A stretch of 64,000 bases of DNA from a virus, in the UHGV virus genome UHGV-0390448. One strand, written 5' to 3'. Positions 2,551 to 60,347 of the stretch are shown piece by piece (position 1 is the first letter of the stretch; every line of letters starts with the position of its first letter). The notes beneath the pieces were generated by a model, which was given only the letters and a program-made list of their open reading frames with translations, was not told where the DNA came from and made no database searches. The position numbers and the translations under genes were made by a program.

Positions 2551-3393
2551 CTAAGGTGCAAAATTATAATCCAGCGCCCAGGCGTCGAGCGGAAGTTCAT
2601 CGAGATGAAGCACTCTTTCCGTCGTCCGGTCTGGCCTTCCAGCGAACTGGATGCCGTCTAATTGAATGATCGTATCGCTAATAGATAGTTCATCGACCAT
2701 CTCTTGCGTCGTGTACACCCCCTCAATAAAGGACACTTCCGCAGATAAGCAATTCAGGATCTCCGCCATTTCCGGCAATGTTGCGCTCAACTGGAAAGAA
2801 ACACCATCAAACACGATATGCAATGGCAATAGCGGCGCTATAACCGTATCAAAATCAGCAAGTAGCTTCTGTACAGCAACGTCTCTGTCATCGCTATCAT
2901 AAGCTCGATACAGCTTATTTTGGTTGACGACAACCAGCCCTCTGGATGTCAGGAAAAACTCACCATATTGTGCCTGAGCGGTCGGTATTTCATTTGCGGT
3001 CGCGAAGAATGAACCATAGGGATGTTTTTCTGTATCGACAGGCGCATACAAAGGTTCCCATGAGACGGGGATTGTGCCAAATTCACGCCAGAACGTTTGC
3101 TCTATCGGCCTTACTGTTCCTTTGAAGTGCACCTCATCCAGTCGTTGAGCTAATAGCATTGGCCTGCGTGTTTTGTCCGTTTCTGTGATAACAAAGAAAC
3201 GACCATATTCAGCAATGCGAGTGTCCATATCCTCGCTTGCCATTGTGAAAAACGATTTACGGTTGCTTATTCGCGTGAGAATAGGTTCAACCGATTCATT
3301 CCACACGTCCTGAATCGTATCAACAAAGGCGGCCCACAATTTAGAATCCTGTTTAAATTGCGTCAGACGCTCTTTTAGCCAGTTATTCTGCAT
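2551..3393 (-). CDS. Putative baseplate protein
   Basis: 280-aa ORF in a co-directional tail module between a gp25/W-like gene and the fiber; positional inference. Confidence 0.4.
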   Translation of the reverse strand: MQNNWLKERLTQFKQDSKLWAAFVDTIQDVWNESVEPILTRISNRKSFFTMASEDMDTRIAEYGRFFVITETDKTRRPMLLAQRLDEVHFKGTVRPIEQTFWREFGTIPVSWEPLYAPVDTEKHPYGSFFATANEIPTAQAQYGEFFLTSRGLVVVNQNKLYRAYDSDDRDVAVQKLLADFDTVIAPLLPLHIVFDGVSFQLSATLPEMAEILNCLSAEVSFIEGVYTTQEMVDELSISDTIIQLDGIQFAGRPDRTTERVLHLDELPLDAWALDYNFAP

Positions 3394-18939: not shown

Positions 18940-19024
18940 ATAGCATTAGAAAAATAATTTTCGTTAACAATCTTGTGTTAGTATGGTTTAATCTTAATTT
19001 TCTAACATAAAACATTAGAACAAT
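18940..19024. promoter_or_regulatory. Cluster of three operator-like sites (TGTTAGAAAA family) in a divergent promoter region
   Basis: cattagaaaaat at 18943-18954, attttctaacat at 18997-19008 (inverted), cattagaaca at 19013-19022; immediately upstream of the ORF at 19023. Confidence 0.6.
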
Positions 19025-33482: not shown

Positions 33483-33764
33483 TTATGCGTGGGAAAATAA
33501 TGGACGGATGTTTGGGCGAGCGGTTTGCGAAGCAACCCAAAGCTCATACTGGGATTGCATACCGGTCCACATTTCGGCACTGGTTCCAAGAGCGGACTCC
33601 AGACGAAGTGCCATATCAGCAGAAATACCTGTTTTTTCGTTCAGAATTCGGGAAAGTGCCGTGCGAGTAATGCCTAATGCAGCAGCTGCGTCTGTGACTG
33701 ACATGTCTCCCAAATATTCACGAAGAACCGCGCCTGGATGCGCGGGATTATGCATACGACTCAT
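33483..33764 (-). CDS. HigA/VapI-type HTH antitoxin-like protein (no cognate HigB adjacent)
   Basis: 93 aa with [13 protein letters not shown] and [38 protein letters not shown], the classical HigA signature. Confidence 0.65.
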
Positions 33765-34060
33765 ATGTGGAAAGCAACCCGTTTACCGGTTGGCAATTCA
33801 ACGTCCAGACTCAACTTTCCACCCATAGCCTCAACGTAACGTTTAAGCGTTGCTACTTTCAAGTCATTGCCTCGTTGTTCAAGTTTTGTGATGGCTGGTT
33901 GACTAATTCCCATCGCATCGGCAACTGTTTTTTGTGATAACTGAAGCTCCTCTCTCAACATCTGCAATCCGACTTCCAGAATCATTTCATCAGCCTGCTC
34001 TTTGATACGAGCTTGGCTTTCAGGGGATTGCGCAGCAATAACTTCTCTTAGAGTTCTCAT
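33761..34060 (-). CDS. XRE-family HTH antitoxin
   Basis: 99 aa with HTH ([21 protein letters not shown]), start overlapping the toxin stop. Confidence 0.6.
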
Positions 34061-34407
34061 TATTTTTTCTCAAGTTCTGCAAGATGGTTGGAAAATTCGT
34101 CGTCTGCAATCCGTATCATTCTTTCGTAGAACTTTTTATCGTTACTCTTATCTCCGGCGCACAGGATTATGGCTTGCCTTACCGGATCAAATGCGAAGAA
34201 TGCTCTGATAGGGCGACCAGCGTACTGAATCCGTAACTCCTTCATGTTTTTATGGCGTGAGCCTTTAACTGTGTCGGCATATGGCCTTGATAATGAAGGG
34301 CCATATGTTTCCAGATTGATCAGGTCAACCAGGATTTTTTCTTTTAATGCAGGTTCCTGTTCCTGGAACCATTCATCAAAAATTTTTCCAAAATAAATTT
34401 GCCACAT
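34060..34407 (-). CDS. RelE/ParE-superfamily toxin (Gp49/DUF891-like)
   Basis: 115 aa; toxin-first order with overlapping HTH antitoxin; sequence pattern of the phage Gp49-like killer family. Confidence 0.55.
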   Translation of the reverse strand: MWQIYFGKIFDEWFQEQEPALKEKILVDLINLETYGPSLSRPYADTVKGSRHKNMKELRIQYAGRPIRAFFAFDPVRQAIILCAGDKSNDKKFYERMIRIADDEFSNHLAELEKK

Positions 34408-36803: not shown

Positions 36804-36842
36804 TTAGTAGTTAAAGCCCCGGCATGACCGGGGCAAAAGCTA

Positions 36843-37769
36843 TTAACTAATAATCCAGTCGGTTGCTGCTACATCTTCTGGCTGCAAATCAATCGCACAG
36901 ATCTTACCGTCGCGAATGGTGCGCCAGTTTTTCCGTGAGCCTCTTTCGGGCCATACCCAGACACTTTCAGGCCAGGATGCTCGACGGCATACGGTTGCAT
37001 ACCCTGTTTTAATCTTCTCTCTGGCGGTATGCAACGACAGGTTTGCCTTTGGACTTTCAGGCACAGGATGGTGAATGGCCTGAAATAGCCCCATCCTGGG
37101 ATGATACCAGCGTTTGTTACGTGGTTCTGCCTCCGACATAACCTGCTTAAAGGCTTTCCGGAAGGGGGCCAGGGCCACAATGGAACGTCGCGCAAGCAAA
37201 CCGTCGGGAGTTAAAAACTCATGCGTATCAGTGGGTATCCGGTAAGCGTTGACCAGGTTACGGCATTTGGCTTCAGTCAGGCCACATTTCGCCGCCAACT
37301 GGCGGTAGCCAATGTAGCCTTCCGGAATATTGCCTTTCTTGATCTGCTCGACGGTTTCAGCGACTTTGGACACTTGTGCCGATACTTCGGCTACCTGGGC
37401 ATTAACAGCGTTGATCCGGCGTTCATGCTCAAGATGCATTTGCGCCATTTCAGCCAGGATTTCGGCTTTTGATTTTAACGGTCCCCTGGCATTCTCCAGT
37501 TCGCGCCAGCGGTCCACCAGCCGGGCGGTGAATTCCGGAGAGAGCTGTGCGACGACAATGATACTATCGCGCTTGCCTTGCTCGCCTTCGAAGACGTAAT
37601 AGCTCGCCGGGCGGCCTGCGGTGGGCTTTTCCTCAATTTGAGGAAAAGATATTACGCCCCGTTCCGCCAGGTGTTCAATGGTGCGTTTAACGTTATCAGG
37701 GCGCTTACCTACCAGTTCCGCGATCTCAATGCTGGTCATTGTCGCTTTTTGAGAGATGGACAGATTCAT
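36843..37769 (-). CDS. Rha-family antirepressor-like protein
   Basis: N-terminus MTSIEIAELVGKRPDNVKRTIEHL matches the phage Rha regulatory domain; position downstream of the icd-like ORF and c4-like RNA mirrors the P1 immI operon. Confidence 0.6.
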   Translation of the reverse strand: MNLSISQKATMTSIEIAELVGKRPDNVKRTIEHLAERGVISFPQIEEKPTAGRPASYYVFEGEQGKRDSIIVVAQLSPEFTARLVDRWRELENARGPLKSKAEILAEMAQMHLEHERRINAVNAQVAEVSAQVSKVAETVEQIKKGNIPEGYIGYRQLAAKCGLTEAKCRNLVNAYRIPTDTHEFLTPDGLLARRSIVALAPFRKAFKQVMSEAEPRNKRWYHPRMGLFQAIHHPVPESPKANLSLHTAREKIKTGYATVCRRASWPESVWVWPERGSRKNWRTIRDGKICAIDLQPEDVAATDWIIS

Positions 37770-37984
37770 CAGTGCACCTCCACGCAGTTCATCGGCAGAT
37801 TCCAGTAATTGAGGATCTCCATCGCATCAAGAGTGAAGCGAGCAGCAAAAATGCAGGGTTCTTCGGGAAGGTATGAGCGCGCTTCTGCTTCGGTAGCTGC
37901 CATGACGCAGATGTAGAGGTGTTTTTGGCAGGAATAGAAACGCCAGATAAATTCAGAATGAGTTGGGGTAGGGATAGTAGCCAT
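37769..37984 (-). CDS. Icd-like small ORF
   Basis: 71-aa ORF with a perfect SD (AAGGAGG), stop overlapping the antirepressor start; positional analogy to P1 icd. Confidence 0.4.
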   Translation of the reverse strand: MATIPTPTHSEFIWRFYSCQKHLYICVMAATEAEARSYLPEEPCIFAARFTLDAMEILNYWNLPMNCVEVH

Positions 37985-38165
37985 ATTGGCAGCCTCCTTT
38001 GACTAAGTTAAGGAGCTACCGCGTGAGGTTCCAATCTCAATGGCGGTAGCACTGACTGGGTTGGAACTACCGGCGTCAAAGGGAACCGGCCTGCCTTTCG
38101 GCAGCCCAGCCAGCACTACCATTGATCTCTGAGCTAAACGCTAAGTATGGCTGTGCGATGGCATG

Positions 38166-38235
38166 ACACAAAAAAAGACGCTTTCGGCGTCTGTGTCGCC
38201 TTTGACATTATCCGGGGTTCCAATCCCGGCACCCG
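38166..38235 (-). ncRNA. Candidate c4-like antisense RNA (stem-loop with AUUGGAAC loop plus intrinsic terminator)
   Basis: Minus-strand hairpin CCGGG-AUUGGAAC-CCCGG (38212-38229) followed by terminator AGACGCCGAAAGCGUCU + U7 (38169-38192); complementary GUUCCAA site at 38061-38067 on the same strand upstream of the icd-like SD. Confidence 0.4.
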
Positions 38236-38783
38236 TTTTTCTAAGGTGCCGTAGAAATATACCCCACGATAATGCCTGGGCGCAACAGTCTGTATTTTTA
38301 TGCTTTGGAGGATTTCTTCCGGGCTTGTTTGCAAGCGTAGGCCATTGCTTTAGCTTTCACTTCATCCAGCTTTCCGGTGATCACTTCTTTTCCGAGAGTG
38401 ACAAACCAGTCATAGCAACCGCCAGTGATGTTCTGGATTTGAAAGTTGAGGTAGCGAACGGTCATTTTGACACCCCCAGCGCGAGTAAAGAATGCAGATT
38501 ATCGCGTGAGTGGCGGACAATGAGTGATGGGGAAAGACAGTAGTTGTTCATAGTGTAGTGACTCCTTGCTTTCGGAGCCGCCATCGACTGTTCCACGGTC
38601 TGGTGGCGGCGCAATAAAGGCTGGAACACCGTGAGTCAACGGGGGCTTTTCAGCCACCTATATTGCACCGCCATTGGTATGGCGGCGGCAATCATACGAA
38701 AAACCAAACGGTTTGTCTCAAAAAGTTGACCGGTGTACCAATCGGTTGTGAATGTACAACGGTGAATTTCACAATTCAACTTA

Positions 38784-38800
38784 AAATGTTAGAAAACTAA
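38784..38800. promoter_or_regulatory. Operator-like site at the head of the immI-like operon
   Basis: aaatgttagaaaactaa matches the TGTTAGAAAAYTAA family. Confidence 0.55.
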
Positions 38801-39414
38801 TTTATTAATTCAGTCACCATCTGATACAACGTCATTTCATCAGCATTGTGCCGCCTGAAATCTGCTTTGCCGCCTATTTTTCCATCAGCATGAACAGGGA
38901 CCAACCAGGGGTATTGCTCGCGTATCTCTGCTGGCGCTGCGTGTTGATGGTGCCATTTACACAAAGGGAGAACGTATTTATGCGCGTTCTCTGCCGTTCT
39001 CCCGAAGATGTGGTGCAGGGATACCACAGGGCTATGCTGTCCGTGCATATGGCAGGCAATGCAGGGGAGGGCACCGATGGCAGTTTGTATCCGGCGCTCA
39101 TCTGCTGTGAGTGTTCTGCCTTTCAGGCCGCGTGACGCGCGAGTTTTTTTGACAGGAGCAGAAGCGGCCTTCTCTTTTCTTCGCTGTTCATATTGCTTCG
39201 CTTTTTCAATTTTCTTTTGCCGATATTCAGGCGATGCGGCTTTTTCTCGCGCACGCTGCTGCTGGCGTTGAGCTTGCTGAAGACGTTTTGCCCTTTGTTC
39301 CTCCCGCCATTTCGGATCAGCCAGTTTTTGCAGGGCTTTTTGTGTCTGTTTCTCCCAATAGCTTTGCTTCATAGAAATACCCGGTTTGTCTACATCGCCG
39401 CTATGGTTGATCAA
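38797..39414 (-). CDS. ref: Ref-like HNH endonuclease
   Basis: 205 aa; K/R/Q-rich disordered N-terminal half, C-terminal Cys/His cluster (CIACHMHG ... SLHHIFG ... PLCKWHH); perfect palindromic operator directly upstream. Confidence 0.5.
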   Translation of the reverse strand: MINHSGDVDKPGISMKQSYWEKQTQKALQKLADPKWREEQRAKRLQQAQRQQQRAREKAASPEYRQKKIEKAKQYEQRRKEKAASAPVKKTRASRGLKGRTLTADERRIQTAIGALPCIACHMHGQHSPVVSLHHIFGRTAENAHKYVLPLCKWHHQHAAPAEIREQYPWLVPVHADGKIGGKADFRRHNADEMTLYQMVTELIN

Positions 39415-39415
39415 A

Positions 39416-39449
39416 TGTGTTAGAAAATCAAAATTGATTTTCTAACACA
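39416..39449. promoter_or_regulatory. Perfect 34-bp palindromic double operator
   Basis: tgtgttagaaaatcaa-aa-ttgattttctaacaca, 2 nt upstream of the ref-like start and about 170 nt upstream of the divergent plus-strand genes. Confidence 0.7.
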
Positions 39450-44255: not shown

Positions 44256-44288
44256 GATGTTAGAATATTGATTTTAATTTTCTAACAG
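44256..44288. promoter_or_regulatory. Inverted pair of operator-like sites
   Basis: gatgttagaatattgattttaattttctaacag upstream of the ORF at 44330. Confidence 0.55.
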
Positions 44289-57869: not shown

Positions 57870-57900
57870 ACTGTCTAAAAAGATTGTTAGAAAATTAATT
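57870..57900. promoter_or_regulatory. Tandem operator-like sites between the recombinase gene and the downstream operon
   Basis: actgtctaaaaag + attgttagaaaattaatt; the second is a full match to the TGTTAGAAAAYTAA family. Confidence 0.55.
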
Positions 57901-59194: not shown

Positions 59195-59297
59195 ACATTT
59201 TCTAATAGGAACAATCAAAAAAAAGCGGTTTTATCCTTTACTCACCTTGTTATTCAGCATAAATTTGTCACAGGACTTTTATGTTAGAAAACTAAAT
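59195..59297. promoter_or_regulatory. Two operator-like sites upstream of the 59310 ORF
   Basis: acattttctaatagg (59195-59209, inverted) and ttatgttagaaaactaaat (59279-59297). Confidence 0.55.
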
Positions 59298-59309: not shown

Positions 59310-60347
59310 ATGAGTAAGAAGTCGATCGAGAATGAGTACAAACGGTTCCTGCAAACCGCTGAACGGTGGAAAGAGCTGGTGGTCGCAAACTCTGTTTTCC
59401 ATGATACCAGTTACGTTGGCGAGGAATTTCGCCATGTTGCATTAACACATGATCCGGCTGTATTAGAAGAAGCTGAAAAATGCATAGCCGAATGGAAAGC
59501 CTTTGTTGATCTGTGTCGCAAGGATGATGACAAAGCCTCAAACATTGTTGAGTCGGTTTATTTACCGATCCCATTCATTGTTGAGGATACTAATCAGAGT
59601 ACGCATATCGTTATGCAAAGCGCAACCACAACGAGAACATTTACGCGCGAAGACCTGCTGAAAAAATACGATAAAACTATAAAGAAAAGCATGAAAAACA
59701 GGATCTTTTCACAGGTTGTCGGTGCGCTTGAAGAAGAACGCAGATTCTTCGCCGCAGAACGTGAGGGCGAGGTATACCGCGCAAGAAAAGAAGGTTATAC
59801 CGATGTGGTGATTACCACCAATATCGAGGGCAACAATGGACTTTCACGCTTCAGAGTGGGTACGCACGGTGCGCTGATCTTTGCAAAAAAAGCAAACACA
59901 GAGATTCCCGTTGTTAACAACGTTGGTGAGCGCCGCACCCTTACCATTTACACTGGCATTAAACCGCTTCCGTGCGGACTTCTCGGCGAATTTGACCTTT
60001 ATCGGGTTCGTGACCTGGAAAAGCAGCAGCCAAGCTATGTCGTGAAGTCATATATCCTGAGAAACATTGATATCCGCAATCAGAGTTTAAAAAACAAATC
60101 AGAGAAAATGCTGTCCGAAGCCGATCCAGCCATACACCAGATCGTTAGCCGGAAAATTCAAGAAGCTAAAGATGCAATGGCAAGGCTGGATAAAATGGAC
60201 CTGGAACTACTGGAAGTTATGATTGCCTCCGGCGATGACCTGACAGGCATCCGCCTTACTGAAGCCAGGAAAAAATACGGTAAAAGCGTTGAAGAACGCT
60301 ATGGGTACACATTCACACAAACGATGTACGCGGCAAAACTCTGGTAA
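59310..60347 (+). CDS. Hypothetical protein in the position of the immunity repressor (between lox-like site and pacB)
   Basis: 345 aa from ATG 59310 (RBS AGTAGGA); operator-like sites in its 5-prime region. I could not recognise similarity to P1 C1, so the repressor assignment is positional only. Confidence 0.4.
   Translation: MSKKSIENEYKRFLQTAERWKELVVANSVFHDTSYVGEEFRHVALTHDPAVLEEAEKCIAEWKAFVDLCRKDDDKASNIVESVYLPIPFIVEDTNQSTHIVMQSATTTRTFTREDLLKKYDKTIKKSMKNRIFSQVVGALEEERRFFAAEREGEVYRARKEGYTDVVITTNIEGNNGLSRFRVGTHGALIFAKKANTEIPVVNNVGERRTLTIYTGIKPLPCGLLGEFDLYRVRDLEKQQPSYVVKSYILRNIDIRNQSLKNKSEKMLSEADPAIHQIVSRKIQEAKDAMARLDKMDLELLEVMIASGDDLTGIRLTEARKKYGKSVEERYGYTFTQTMYAAKLW

Follow-up and report, generated by a model that had tools for sequence, protein, structure and literature searches.

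Antisense RNA elements in a probable immI region of a D6-like plasmid prophage: a C4 RNA, an isrK-like RNA and a second C4-like module

Assignment of the locus

Control of an antirepressor gene in the C4-icd-ant arrangement has been known since 1990. In the virus genome UHGV-0390448, of which a stretch of 64,000 nt was analysed (the window, to which all coordinates refer), positions 36,843 to 38,800 raised the question of whether such a circuit is encoded and, if so, which of its RNAs is the repressor and which the target. All elements of the locus lie on the minus strand, which was read from 38850 to 36800. A first-pass annotation had described a short terminated hairpin RNA as the c4-like repressor, a downstream GUUCCAA site as its target, and behind this site an icd-like open reading frame (ORF) and a Rha-type antirepressor gene. 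Every element described was present at its place on the minus strand, far beyond chance (zero two-box matches were expected in shuffled sequences), and an immI-type c4-icd-ant operon with a Rha-type antirepressor was recovered (C4 with 77.1 bits, Icd with 49.4 bits, the antirepressor with Phage_pRha and phrog_63). Regulator and target had been exchanged, however: the short hairpin RNA matched the isrK family with 62.7 bits, and the C4 RNA was the element that contains GUUCCAA.

We regard the locus, with a probability of roughly 85 %, as the secondary immunity region (immI) of a plasmid prophage that is D6-like and related to P1, C4 antisense control included. The region was about 93 % identical over 2 kb to the immI region of Escherichia phage D6, whose record (NC_050154) annotates ref, three hypothetical proteins and icd-like, ant and pmgF-like genes here, and about 120 D6-like plasmids have the same region. 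The order of the elements matched the annotated order in P1, namely Op51, P51a/P51b, a1/b1, c4, a2/b2, icd and ant; in the P1 annotation Op51 is the C1 operator and P51a and P51b are the two c4 promoters, whereas the operator and the promoters of the window are putative. The system is of an already-known kind with annotated close relatives, and there is little new in the finding as such. An Rfam scan of the whole 64 kb window presented two matches above the gathering score, RF01695 (C4) and RF01394 (isrK), both on the minus strand and both in this locus. A match to IRES_HCV, 13 bits against a gathering score of 290, was noise. The tRNA scan found no tRNA, which ruled out a tRNA gene as the identity of the tRNA-like C4.

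C4 antisense RNA and its target sites

The C4 antisense RNA was located at 38039..38126 (-). RF01695 matched this stretch with 77.1 bits, against a gathering score of 45, and covered model positions 1-87 of 87. The 88-nt RNA folds as a three-way junction, with a long outer stem around two hairpins and a single-stranded junction; the predicted minimum-free-energy fold (-46.5 kcal/mol) reproduces the family structure. The loop box CCUUUGAC (38082-38075) is in the loop of the second hairpin and the junction box GUUCCAA (38067-38061) in the single-stranded junction, thus GUUCCAA is not a plain downstream site as had been supposed, but part of this RNA. A covariance-model search with folding, which the first-pass annotation had named as a check, did reveal a c4-like RNA, at 38039-38126 and not at the short hairpin RNA. 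Both boxes are complementary to sites upstream (a1/b1) and downstream (a2/b2) of the C4 RNA, and the downstream site lies on the Shine-Dalgarno (SD) sequence of the first ORF. In P1, the C4 RNA is cut from the operon transcript, with RNase P making its 5' end, and represses ant in trans (PMC8201110). By analogy, the C4 RNA of the window would be processed from its transcript and repress ant in trans.

The icd leader (37993..38050 (-)) contains a hairpin, 38050-38015, that presents the loop AUUGGAAC. The a2 box was found at 38034-38028 and the b2 box, GUCAAAGG, at 38003-37996; the latter overlaps the SD AAGGAGG (37999-37993) and runs into it 11 nt before the ATG. The GUUCCAA motif at 38061-38067, the second hairpin at 38015-38050, the strong SD and a 71-aa ORF overlapping the start of the antirepressor gene were confirmed as first described. 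The complementarity between loop and target was real for the GUUCCAA pair; the second pair, CCUUUGAC with GUCAAAGG, which is the one that covers the SD, had been missed. The complements of the C4 boxes occur twice in the same order, UUGGAAC followed by GUCAAAGG, at 38223-38199 in the isrK-like RNA and at 38034-37996 in the leader of icd. When both strands of the 64 kb were searched, the pattern TTGGAAC-N(5-35)-GTCAAAGG, which combines the two target boxes, was present in this locus only, twice as target and once as complement inside the C4 RNA, with zero occurrences expected in shuffles. Predicted duplex energies of the icd-leader sites with the C4 boxes were -9.4 and -14.2 kcal/mol, and those of cognate boxes overall ranged from -9.4 to -15.5 kcal/mol. 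In a fold of the whole transcript (38255-37975) the a1/b1 boxes paired in cis with the C4 boxes (z = -6.0), a pairing that is "structure A" of the IsrK paper (PMC4825925).

The isrK-like RNA, which contains the a1/b1 target copy, extends over 38171..38249 (-). RF01394 matched it in full length (62.7 bits, gathering score 50), and the c4-a1b1 family (RF03163) scored 22.4 bits on 38171-38249, below its threshold of 46.7. As the upstream element of P1, P7 and Gifsy-1 is matched by c4-a1b1 and isrK alike, the isrK-like RNA is the lambdoid-type version of the a1/b1 target copy known from P1. Of its two hairpins, the first is formed by the stem CCGGG/CCCGG and the loop AUUGGAAC (about 38231-38213) with the UUGGAAC box (38223-38217) in the loop; the box GUCAAAGG is at 38206-38199. 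The terminator scan placed an intrinsic terminator, a GC-rich stem of 6 bp (38192-38176) with a U-run, at the end of the RNA, and a short RNA of about 80 nt would result from it. A putative promoter, TTGCGC-18-TATATT at 38256..38285 (-), was selected by eye; the start site would be near 38249. Promoter-like hexamers occur at the same place in all related cassettes, and no operator motif was found at this site. On the opposite strand, a 126-aa ORF (38163-38543 (+)) overlaps the isrK-like RNA and the 55-aa ORF described below; D6 has a counterpart of it under the name orf84. With RNA elements and conserved genes on the minus strand, the ORF is unlikely to be a gene.

Comparison among phages argues strongly for base-pairing at the upstream and the downstream sites. 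The window, D6, RCS47, 673R5, phiP27, 2H10, four Stx phages, P1 and P7 were lined up: the C4 boxes differed between the phages, and in every phage both target copies changed along with them. A pattern scan of viral contigs yielded 133 C4 copies with 42 distinct box combinations, which are taken as specificity types. All four target boxes were compared with the C4 RNA of the same locus, with Watson-Crick or G-U pairs accepted; full complementarity was observed in 83 % of the 42 types, against 0.07 % with the flanks of other loci. Relative to D6, with the boxes CCUUUUGC and GUCUCAA, the window with CCUUUGAC and GUUCCAA differs in both C4 boxes and in all four target copies, a set of coordinated changes at six sites. 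One box of the window combination is common to RCS47, the other to phiP27. By analogy with P1 versus P7, where the boxes define the specificity, heteroimmunity to D6 at immI is expected; the element would present a new immI specificity with respect to D6, among mix-and-match specificities that number at least 42.

The first codons after the SD, MAT(I/V)P, were kept in all cassettes whatever protein follows. The cargo genes fused to the cassette vary, and it is exchanged between D6-like plasmids that are otherwise nearly identical. The plasmid pMUB-MIN14-1 (L015), the closest one in the upstream module with 98.7 % identity, had a quite different isrK-C4-leader cassette at 3082-3330 (38250-37990 in the window), with the junction box AGACCAA and matching targets, and thus a third cassette variant. 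On account of the conserved codons and of this third variant in a plasmid so closely related, the stretch that extends from the isrK promoter into the first ORF codons behaves as a portable, exchangeable unit.

Icd and antirepressor proteins

The 71-aa ORF (37769..37984 (-)) matched NF033153 with 49.4 bits (cutoff 25); its identity was 62.7 % with P1 Icd over 59 aa (E 2e-18) and 97 % with D6 Icd. By these similarities it is a true Icd homologue, and tblastn found no second icd copy in the window. Its stop codon overlaps the start codon of ant (TGATG), which is without a strong SD of its own. The ant gene (36843..37769 (-)) encodes 308 aa. The N-terminal part matched Phage_pRha (PF09669) with 30.6 bits at a gathering score of 29.9, and residues 2-308 matched phrog_63, anti-repressor Ant, with an E value of 2.3e-62; D6 Ant was 84 % identical. 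The best blastp alignment with P1 Ant1 had an E value of 0.11 over 67 aa, hence no significant similarity. The 308-aa protein is a candidate antirepressor of the Rha type. The logic of P1 had been said to be reproduced with different sequences: this holds for Ant, unrelated to P1 Ant1, but not for C4 and icd, both of which have their homologues in P1. Behind ant, a GC-rich hairpin GCCCCGG-TCATG-CCGGGGC followed by TTT (36816..36834 (-)) was noticed by eye as a possible end of the operon; the terminator scan did not report it because the T-run is short.

Upstream module and operator-like motif

Overlooked in the first-pass annotation were a second C4-like RNA and two small ORFs between the operator motif and the terminated hairpin RNA. 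The second C4-like RNA (C4#2; 38599..38678 (-)) scored 39.5 bits with RF01695, below the gathering score of 45. It comprises an outer stem and two hairpins, with the loop box UGACUC and the junction box UGUUCCA, and the predicted fold agrees. In the C4#2 alignment 96 % of the cells were paired, and eight pairs were compensated, versus at most one in slid controls. In an Enterobacter relative (L016) the 15-bp outer stem is entirely different, yet fully compensated, and the loop box and the SD-side target changed together (GGCUUC with GGAGCC), while the junction box was unchanged; this homologue was not detected by RF01695. A covariance model built from the C4#2 sequences found canonical C4 RNAs at 29-48 bits, those of Gifsy-1 and phiP27 included. 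About 130 nt around C4#2 were invariant with respect to D6, whereas the flanks differed by 5-8 %.

The leader of a 29-aa ORF (38559..38595 (-)) contains the sites UGGAACA (38595-38589) and GAGUCA (38564-38559), both complementary to the C4#2 boxes; GAGUCA overlaps the SD AGGAG (38566-38562). The 29-aa ORF itself (38462..38551 (-)) has this strong SD, had no family match in its window version, and overlaps with ATGA a 55-aa ORF (38298..38465 (-)). The latter encodes an orphan protein (phrog_7786, E 3.6e-43), the conserved cargo of C4#2, that was found only in D6-like plasmids; a scan of genome contigs confirmed no relatives of it. Its AlphaFold2 model (pLDDT 86.6) has four strands and one helix and gave no significant PDB match (E > 1). 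In D6-like plasmids without module 1, the C4-icd-ant part of the locus, C4#2 is the only C4 and is followed by a 61-aa Icd-like gene in place of the 29-aa ORF (47.1 bits with NF033153 for the ORF of L012) and by the same 55-aa gene. Because these relatives keep C4#2 together with the Icd-like gene and the 55-aa gene, module 2 (38802-38298) looks like the older, ancestral immI of the lineage, with an icd shrunk to 29 codons in the window and in D6.

The C4#2 junction box (UGUUCCAG) also fits the target sites of module 1 (AUUGGAAC; 38034-38028 and 38223-38217) in the window, not in D6. The predicted duplexes with the module-1 sites had -16.4 and -10.0 kcal/mol, against -11.8 kcal/mol for the own site. 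With this fit, cross-regulation between the two modules is possible. Two C4-type RNAs within about 0.6-1.3 kb were also observed in three viral contigs (L030, L094, L133), therefore tandem C4 modules are not unique to D6-like plasmids.

A 17-bp operator-like motif, AATTAGTTTTCTAACAT, overlaps the stop codon of ref at 38786..38802 (-) and is a putative operator of a C1-type repressor. The 17-mer is asymmetric and has six copies in the window at ≤3 mismatches, with 0.22 expected: 18992-19008 (+), 39432-39448 (+), 44257-44273 (-), 57884-57900 (-), 59281-59297 (-) and 38786-38802 (-). The copies mark ref, with the copy at 39432-39448 upstream of it, the immI region, and a C1-like gene (59328-60020 (+)), about 30 nt upstream of its start. 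The product of the C1-like gene, a distant homologue of P1-type C1, shares 21.6 % identity with C1 of RCS47 across 241 aa (tblastn E 4e-7). The repeats are probably the operator set of the plasmid's C1-type repressor. The P1 C1 operator consensus ATTGCTCTAATAAATTT had 0 matches in the window at ≤3 mismatches. An operator-marked promoter region followed by the hairpin RNA had been described; the motif would fit this description, but the copy at 38786-38802 precedes the terminated hairpin RNA by about 540 nt and does not adjoin it.

Two promoter-like sites lie between the motif and C4#2. TTGAAT-17-TACATT (38751..38779 (-)), selected by eye, starts 6 nt after the operator motif and matched 8 of 12 positions, below the threshold of the scan; a TTGAnn-17-TAnATT element is at the same position in L012 and L016, and a promoter function would be in line with this. 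The putative second promoter, GAGACA-17-TATGAT (38691..38719 (-)), came from the promoter scan and is directly upstream of C4#2; nAGACA-17-TATnAT persists in D6, L012 and L016 although the flanks have diverged. A possible upstream a1/b1-like copy for C4#2, UUGGUACA...UGAGACAA at 38740-38712, was considered: it is imperfect, and GAGACA is better explained as the conserved -35 hexamer. Between the two promoter-like sites, a weak terminator-like hairpin GAUUGG-UACA-CCGGUC followed by AACUUUUUGA was seen at 38743-38718 (-), with a loop region (AUUGGUAC) similar to the AUUGGAAC motif; the hairpin might represent an attenuator or else an a1-type element that has degenerated.

Outside the locus, two adjoining small ORFs of 115 aa and 99 aa were noted at 33761-34407 (-), with stop and start codon sharing one base. 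The second has a helix-turn-helix-like stretch, and by eye the pair resembles HigB/HigA or Gp49 toxin-antitoxin systems.

Proposed mechanism and alternatives

In module 1 (38285-36843), transcription would start just upstream of 38249. Some transcripts would stop at the intrinsic terminator and release the isrK-like RNA of about 80 nt, while the rest would read through into C4, icd and ant. By homology with P1, the 88-nt tRNA-like C4 RNA would be cut out of the transcript; its box GUUCCAA would pair with UUGGAAC and its box CCUUUGAC with GUCAAAGG, both in the leader of icd. The latter duplex would cover the SD and leave icd untranslated. The ant gene would stay silent too, by translational coupling to icd and, in P1, by Rho-dependent polarity, because ant overlaps the icd stop codon and is without a strong SD of its own. 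The isrK-like RNA with the same two boxes would most likely compete for C4 as a target mimic, and the sequences of the boxes would set the immunity specificity. In module 2, the operator-like 17-mer and the two promoter-like sites would drive C4#2, whose boxes match the leader and SD of the 29-aa ORF, and this ORF would be coupled to the 55-aa orphan protein.

We hold the decoy role of the isrK-like RNA with moderate confidence. It is our own reading of the Gifsy-1 data, whose authors proposed a direct structural switch in the mRNA (PMC4825925), and Gifsy-1 fusions with the a1 box mutated in cis showed a raised expression, not a lowered one (PMC4825925). Further points weigh against the assignment and the scheme as a whole. 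Family assignments, RNA structures, complementary boxes, their covariation and the gene homologies were observed; processing, repression, coupling, the decoy role and the function of the operator are deductions, and every functional claim for this element derives from homology. Hfq binding and trans-activation of antirepressor translation, for example, are known only for the IsrK of Gifsy-1 (PMC4825925). The Rha match is barely above the Pfam threshold (30.6 versus 29.9 bits). The promoters are weak matches chosen by eye, and the -35 hexamer of the isrK-like promoter agrees with the consensus in 3/6 positions. The 17-mer sits 6 nt upstream of a promoter-like site and does not overlap it, and its binding protein is deduced from a C1 homologue of 22 % identity. 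C4#2 is below the Rfam gathering score, and all its compensated pairs come from one divergent sequence.

Both modules might form one compound, two-tier RNA immunity operon. An ancestral C4 subfamily with the 55-aa effector would have received an added cassette with a C4-titrating isrK-like RNA, and C4#2 would cross-repress this cassette; the two C4 RNAs share the GUUCCA core, hence such cross-repression of the acquired cassette could occur. This proposal is tentative, and as a whole we consider it rather doubtful. If it were true, the D6 lineage would have its own anti-immunity effector in the 55-aa protein and not in the Rha protein, the terminated isrK-like RNA would act as an "anti-antisense", and the Gifsy-1 "orf45" would really be a C4 RNA.

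Alternatively, C4#2 (38599-38678) may be a decaying, functionless duplicate, so that only module 1 is active. The score of 39.5 bits below the threshold of 45, the icd-like gene shrunk to 29 aa behind it in the window and in D6, and the imperfect a1/b1-like sequences upstream would fit decay. We regard it as unlikely: decay is hard to bring together with some 130 nt that remained invariant relative to D6 between flanks differing by 5-8 %, with an outer stem fully compensated in the Enterobacter relative, and with boxes and targets retained at 76 % overall identity. Neither the SD nor the ATGA coupling to the 55-aa ORF has been lost, and in the relatives without module 1 this RNA is the sole C4.

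A control of termination of the P4 CI or N15 CA type would assign another task to the same boxes. Here, C4 would pair with a1/b1 and a2/b2 in the nascent transcript and enforce termination at the isrK-like terminator or further downstream; a1/b1 would be a cis attenuator and not a trans decoy. The a1/b1 boxes are indeed immediately 5' of the intrinsic terminator, and the IsrK paper notes the structural parallel with P4 seqA and CI and suggests that STnc1160 could modulate termination (PMC4825925). N15 immA is reportedly under the control of a small processed RNA, according to a reference cited in PMC4488713. IsrK in trans raised a transcriptional fusion of Gifsy-1 8-fold; the effect on translation, however, was far larger with 139-fold (PMC4825925). 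In every relative the SD is overlapped by b2; P1 is among them, and its annotated mechanism is translational repression. The terminator scan found no terminator-like site after a2/b2 in the window. Termination control is thus improbable as the principal mechanism, and repression by C4 at the SD of icd is preferred.

That the short terminated hairpin RNA (38171-38249) is itself the c4-like repressor, its AUUGGAAC loop binding GUUCCAA in the mRNA and shutting off icd and ant, draws on a real complementarity, on the RNA's own promoter-like site and terminator and on Gifsy-1 experiments that support pairing of the homologous element with the GUUCCAA region (PMC4825925), but is highly improbable, as GUUCCAA is inside the full-length C4 match and not in the leader, the RNA matches isrK and a1b1 and not C4, its boxes are of like sense with those at the SD and hence unable to pair with the SD region of icd, and the Gifsy-1 homologue activates antirepressor translation 100-170-fold (PMC4825925).

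Comparison with known systems

With immI of P1 and P7 the locus has in common the order of the elements, the C4 family (68.8 bits for P1, 77.1 bits for the window), the overlap of icd and ant, and the two boxes with target copies up- and downstream, the downstream copy lying on the SD of icd. Icd is homologous (62.7 % identity), and the boxes define the specificity, as between P1 and P7. The two upstream promoter-like sites resemble the arrangement of P51a and P51b. Unlike P1, the window has an Ant of the Rha type without detectable similarity to P1 Ant1/2, an upstream target element that scores as isrK and not as c4-a1b1, another 17-mer repeat instead of the C1 operator consensus, and a second C4-like module upstream in the same orientation. 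The immI region of D6 (NC_050154: ref, orf86, orf85, icd-like, ant) has the same genes in the same order, and C4#2 with its leader is identical. It differs in boxes and targets and in Ant (84 % identity), and its record annotates no RNA features here. D6-like plasmids contain a second, divergent C4 module, missed by standard Rfam annotation, upstream of an uncharacterised 55-aa protein.

The isrK-C4-leader cassette was present in 139 phage records, mostly of Stx-converting lambdoid phages, and some of these annotate both RNAs. The cassettes of Stx and lambdoid phages (LC710660, phiP27) agree with the window in cassette, SD and the first codons MAT(I/V)P. In contrast to the window, they are fused directly to Rha-like regulators and not to icd, and they belong to integrated prophages and not to plasmids of the P1/D6 type.

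A relative studied by experiment is isrK-orf45-anrP of Gifsy-1, where the short IsrK activates translation of AnrP in trans 100-170-fold (Hershko-Shalev et al. 2016; PMC4825925). When the middle part of IsrK pairs with "orf45" to form "structure A", the read-through transcript is silent in translation; mutations validated the pairs G28-C162 and G31-C159 (PMC4825925). Upstream of anrP we obtained 79 bits for isrK, 48 bits for c4-a1b1 and 69 bits for C4. In the Gifsy-1 record (L138, NC_010392), "orf45" at 34131-34214 (-) coincides with the full-length C4 match of 69 bits. Counted from the start of IsrK, A107 (first AUG of "orf45") coincides with the AUGG conserved at the C4 5' end, the junction box ACGCCAA of C4 contains C159 and C162, and the a1 box UUGGCGU contains G28 and G31. 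What the mutations validated is therefore pairing of a1 with C4. Judged by its family match, the "orf45/STnc1160" of Gifsy-1 corresponds to C4. According to a recent review, orf45 is conserved at the nucleotide level and variable at the amino-acid level.

Gifsy-1 and the window both have an isrK and C4 pair followed by an antirepressor-like gene with a b2-type box on the SD, a cis fold in which the middle part of isrK pairs with the C4 boxes, and one promoter for a short terminated RNA and a read-through transcript. In Gifsy-1, unlike the window, there is no separate icd, the antirepressor follows directly after the leader, and the specificity boxes are different ones, with ACGCCAA in the junction; in the published model the C4 stretch figures as an ORF of 45 codons, and C4 is not invoked (PMC4825925). 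The positions of the mutations suggest that IsrK may act by titrating a C4 RNA. Mapped onto the C4 boxes, the IsrK mutations of Gifsy-1 link the work on IsrK to the work on c4 of P1.

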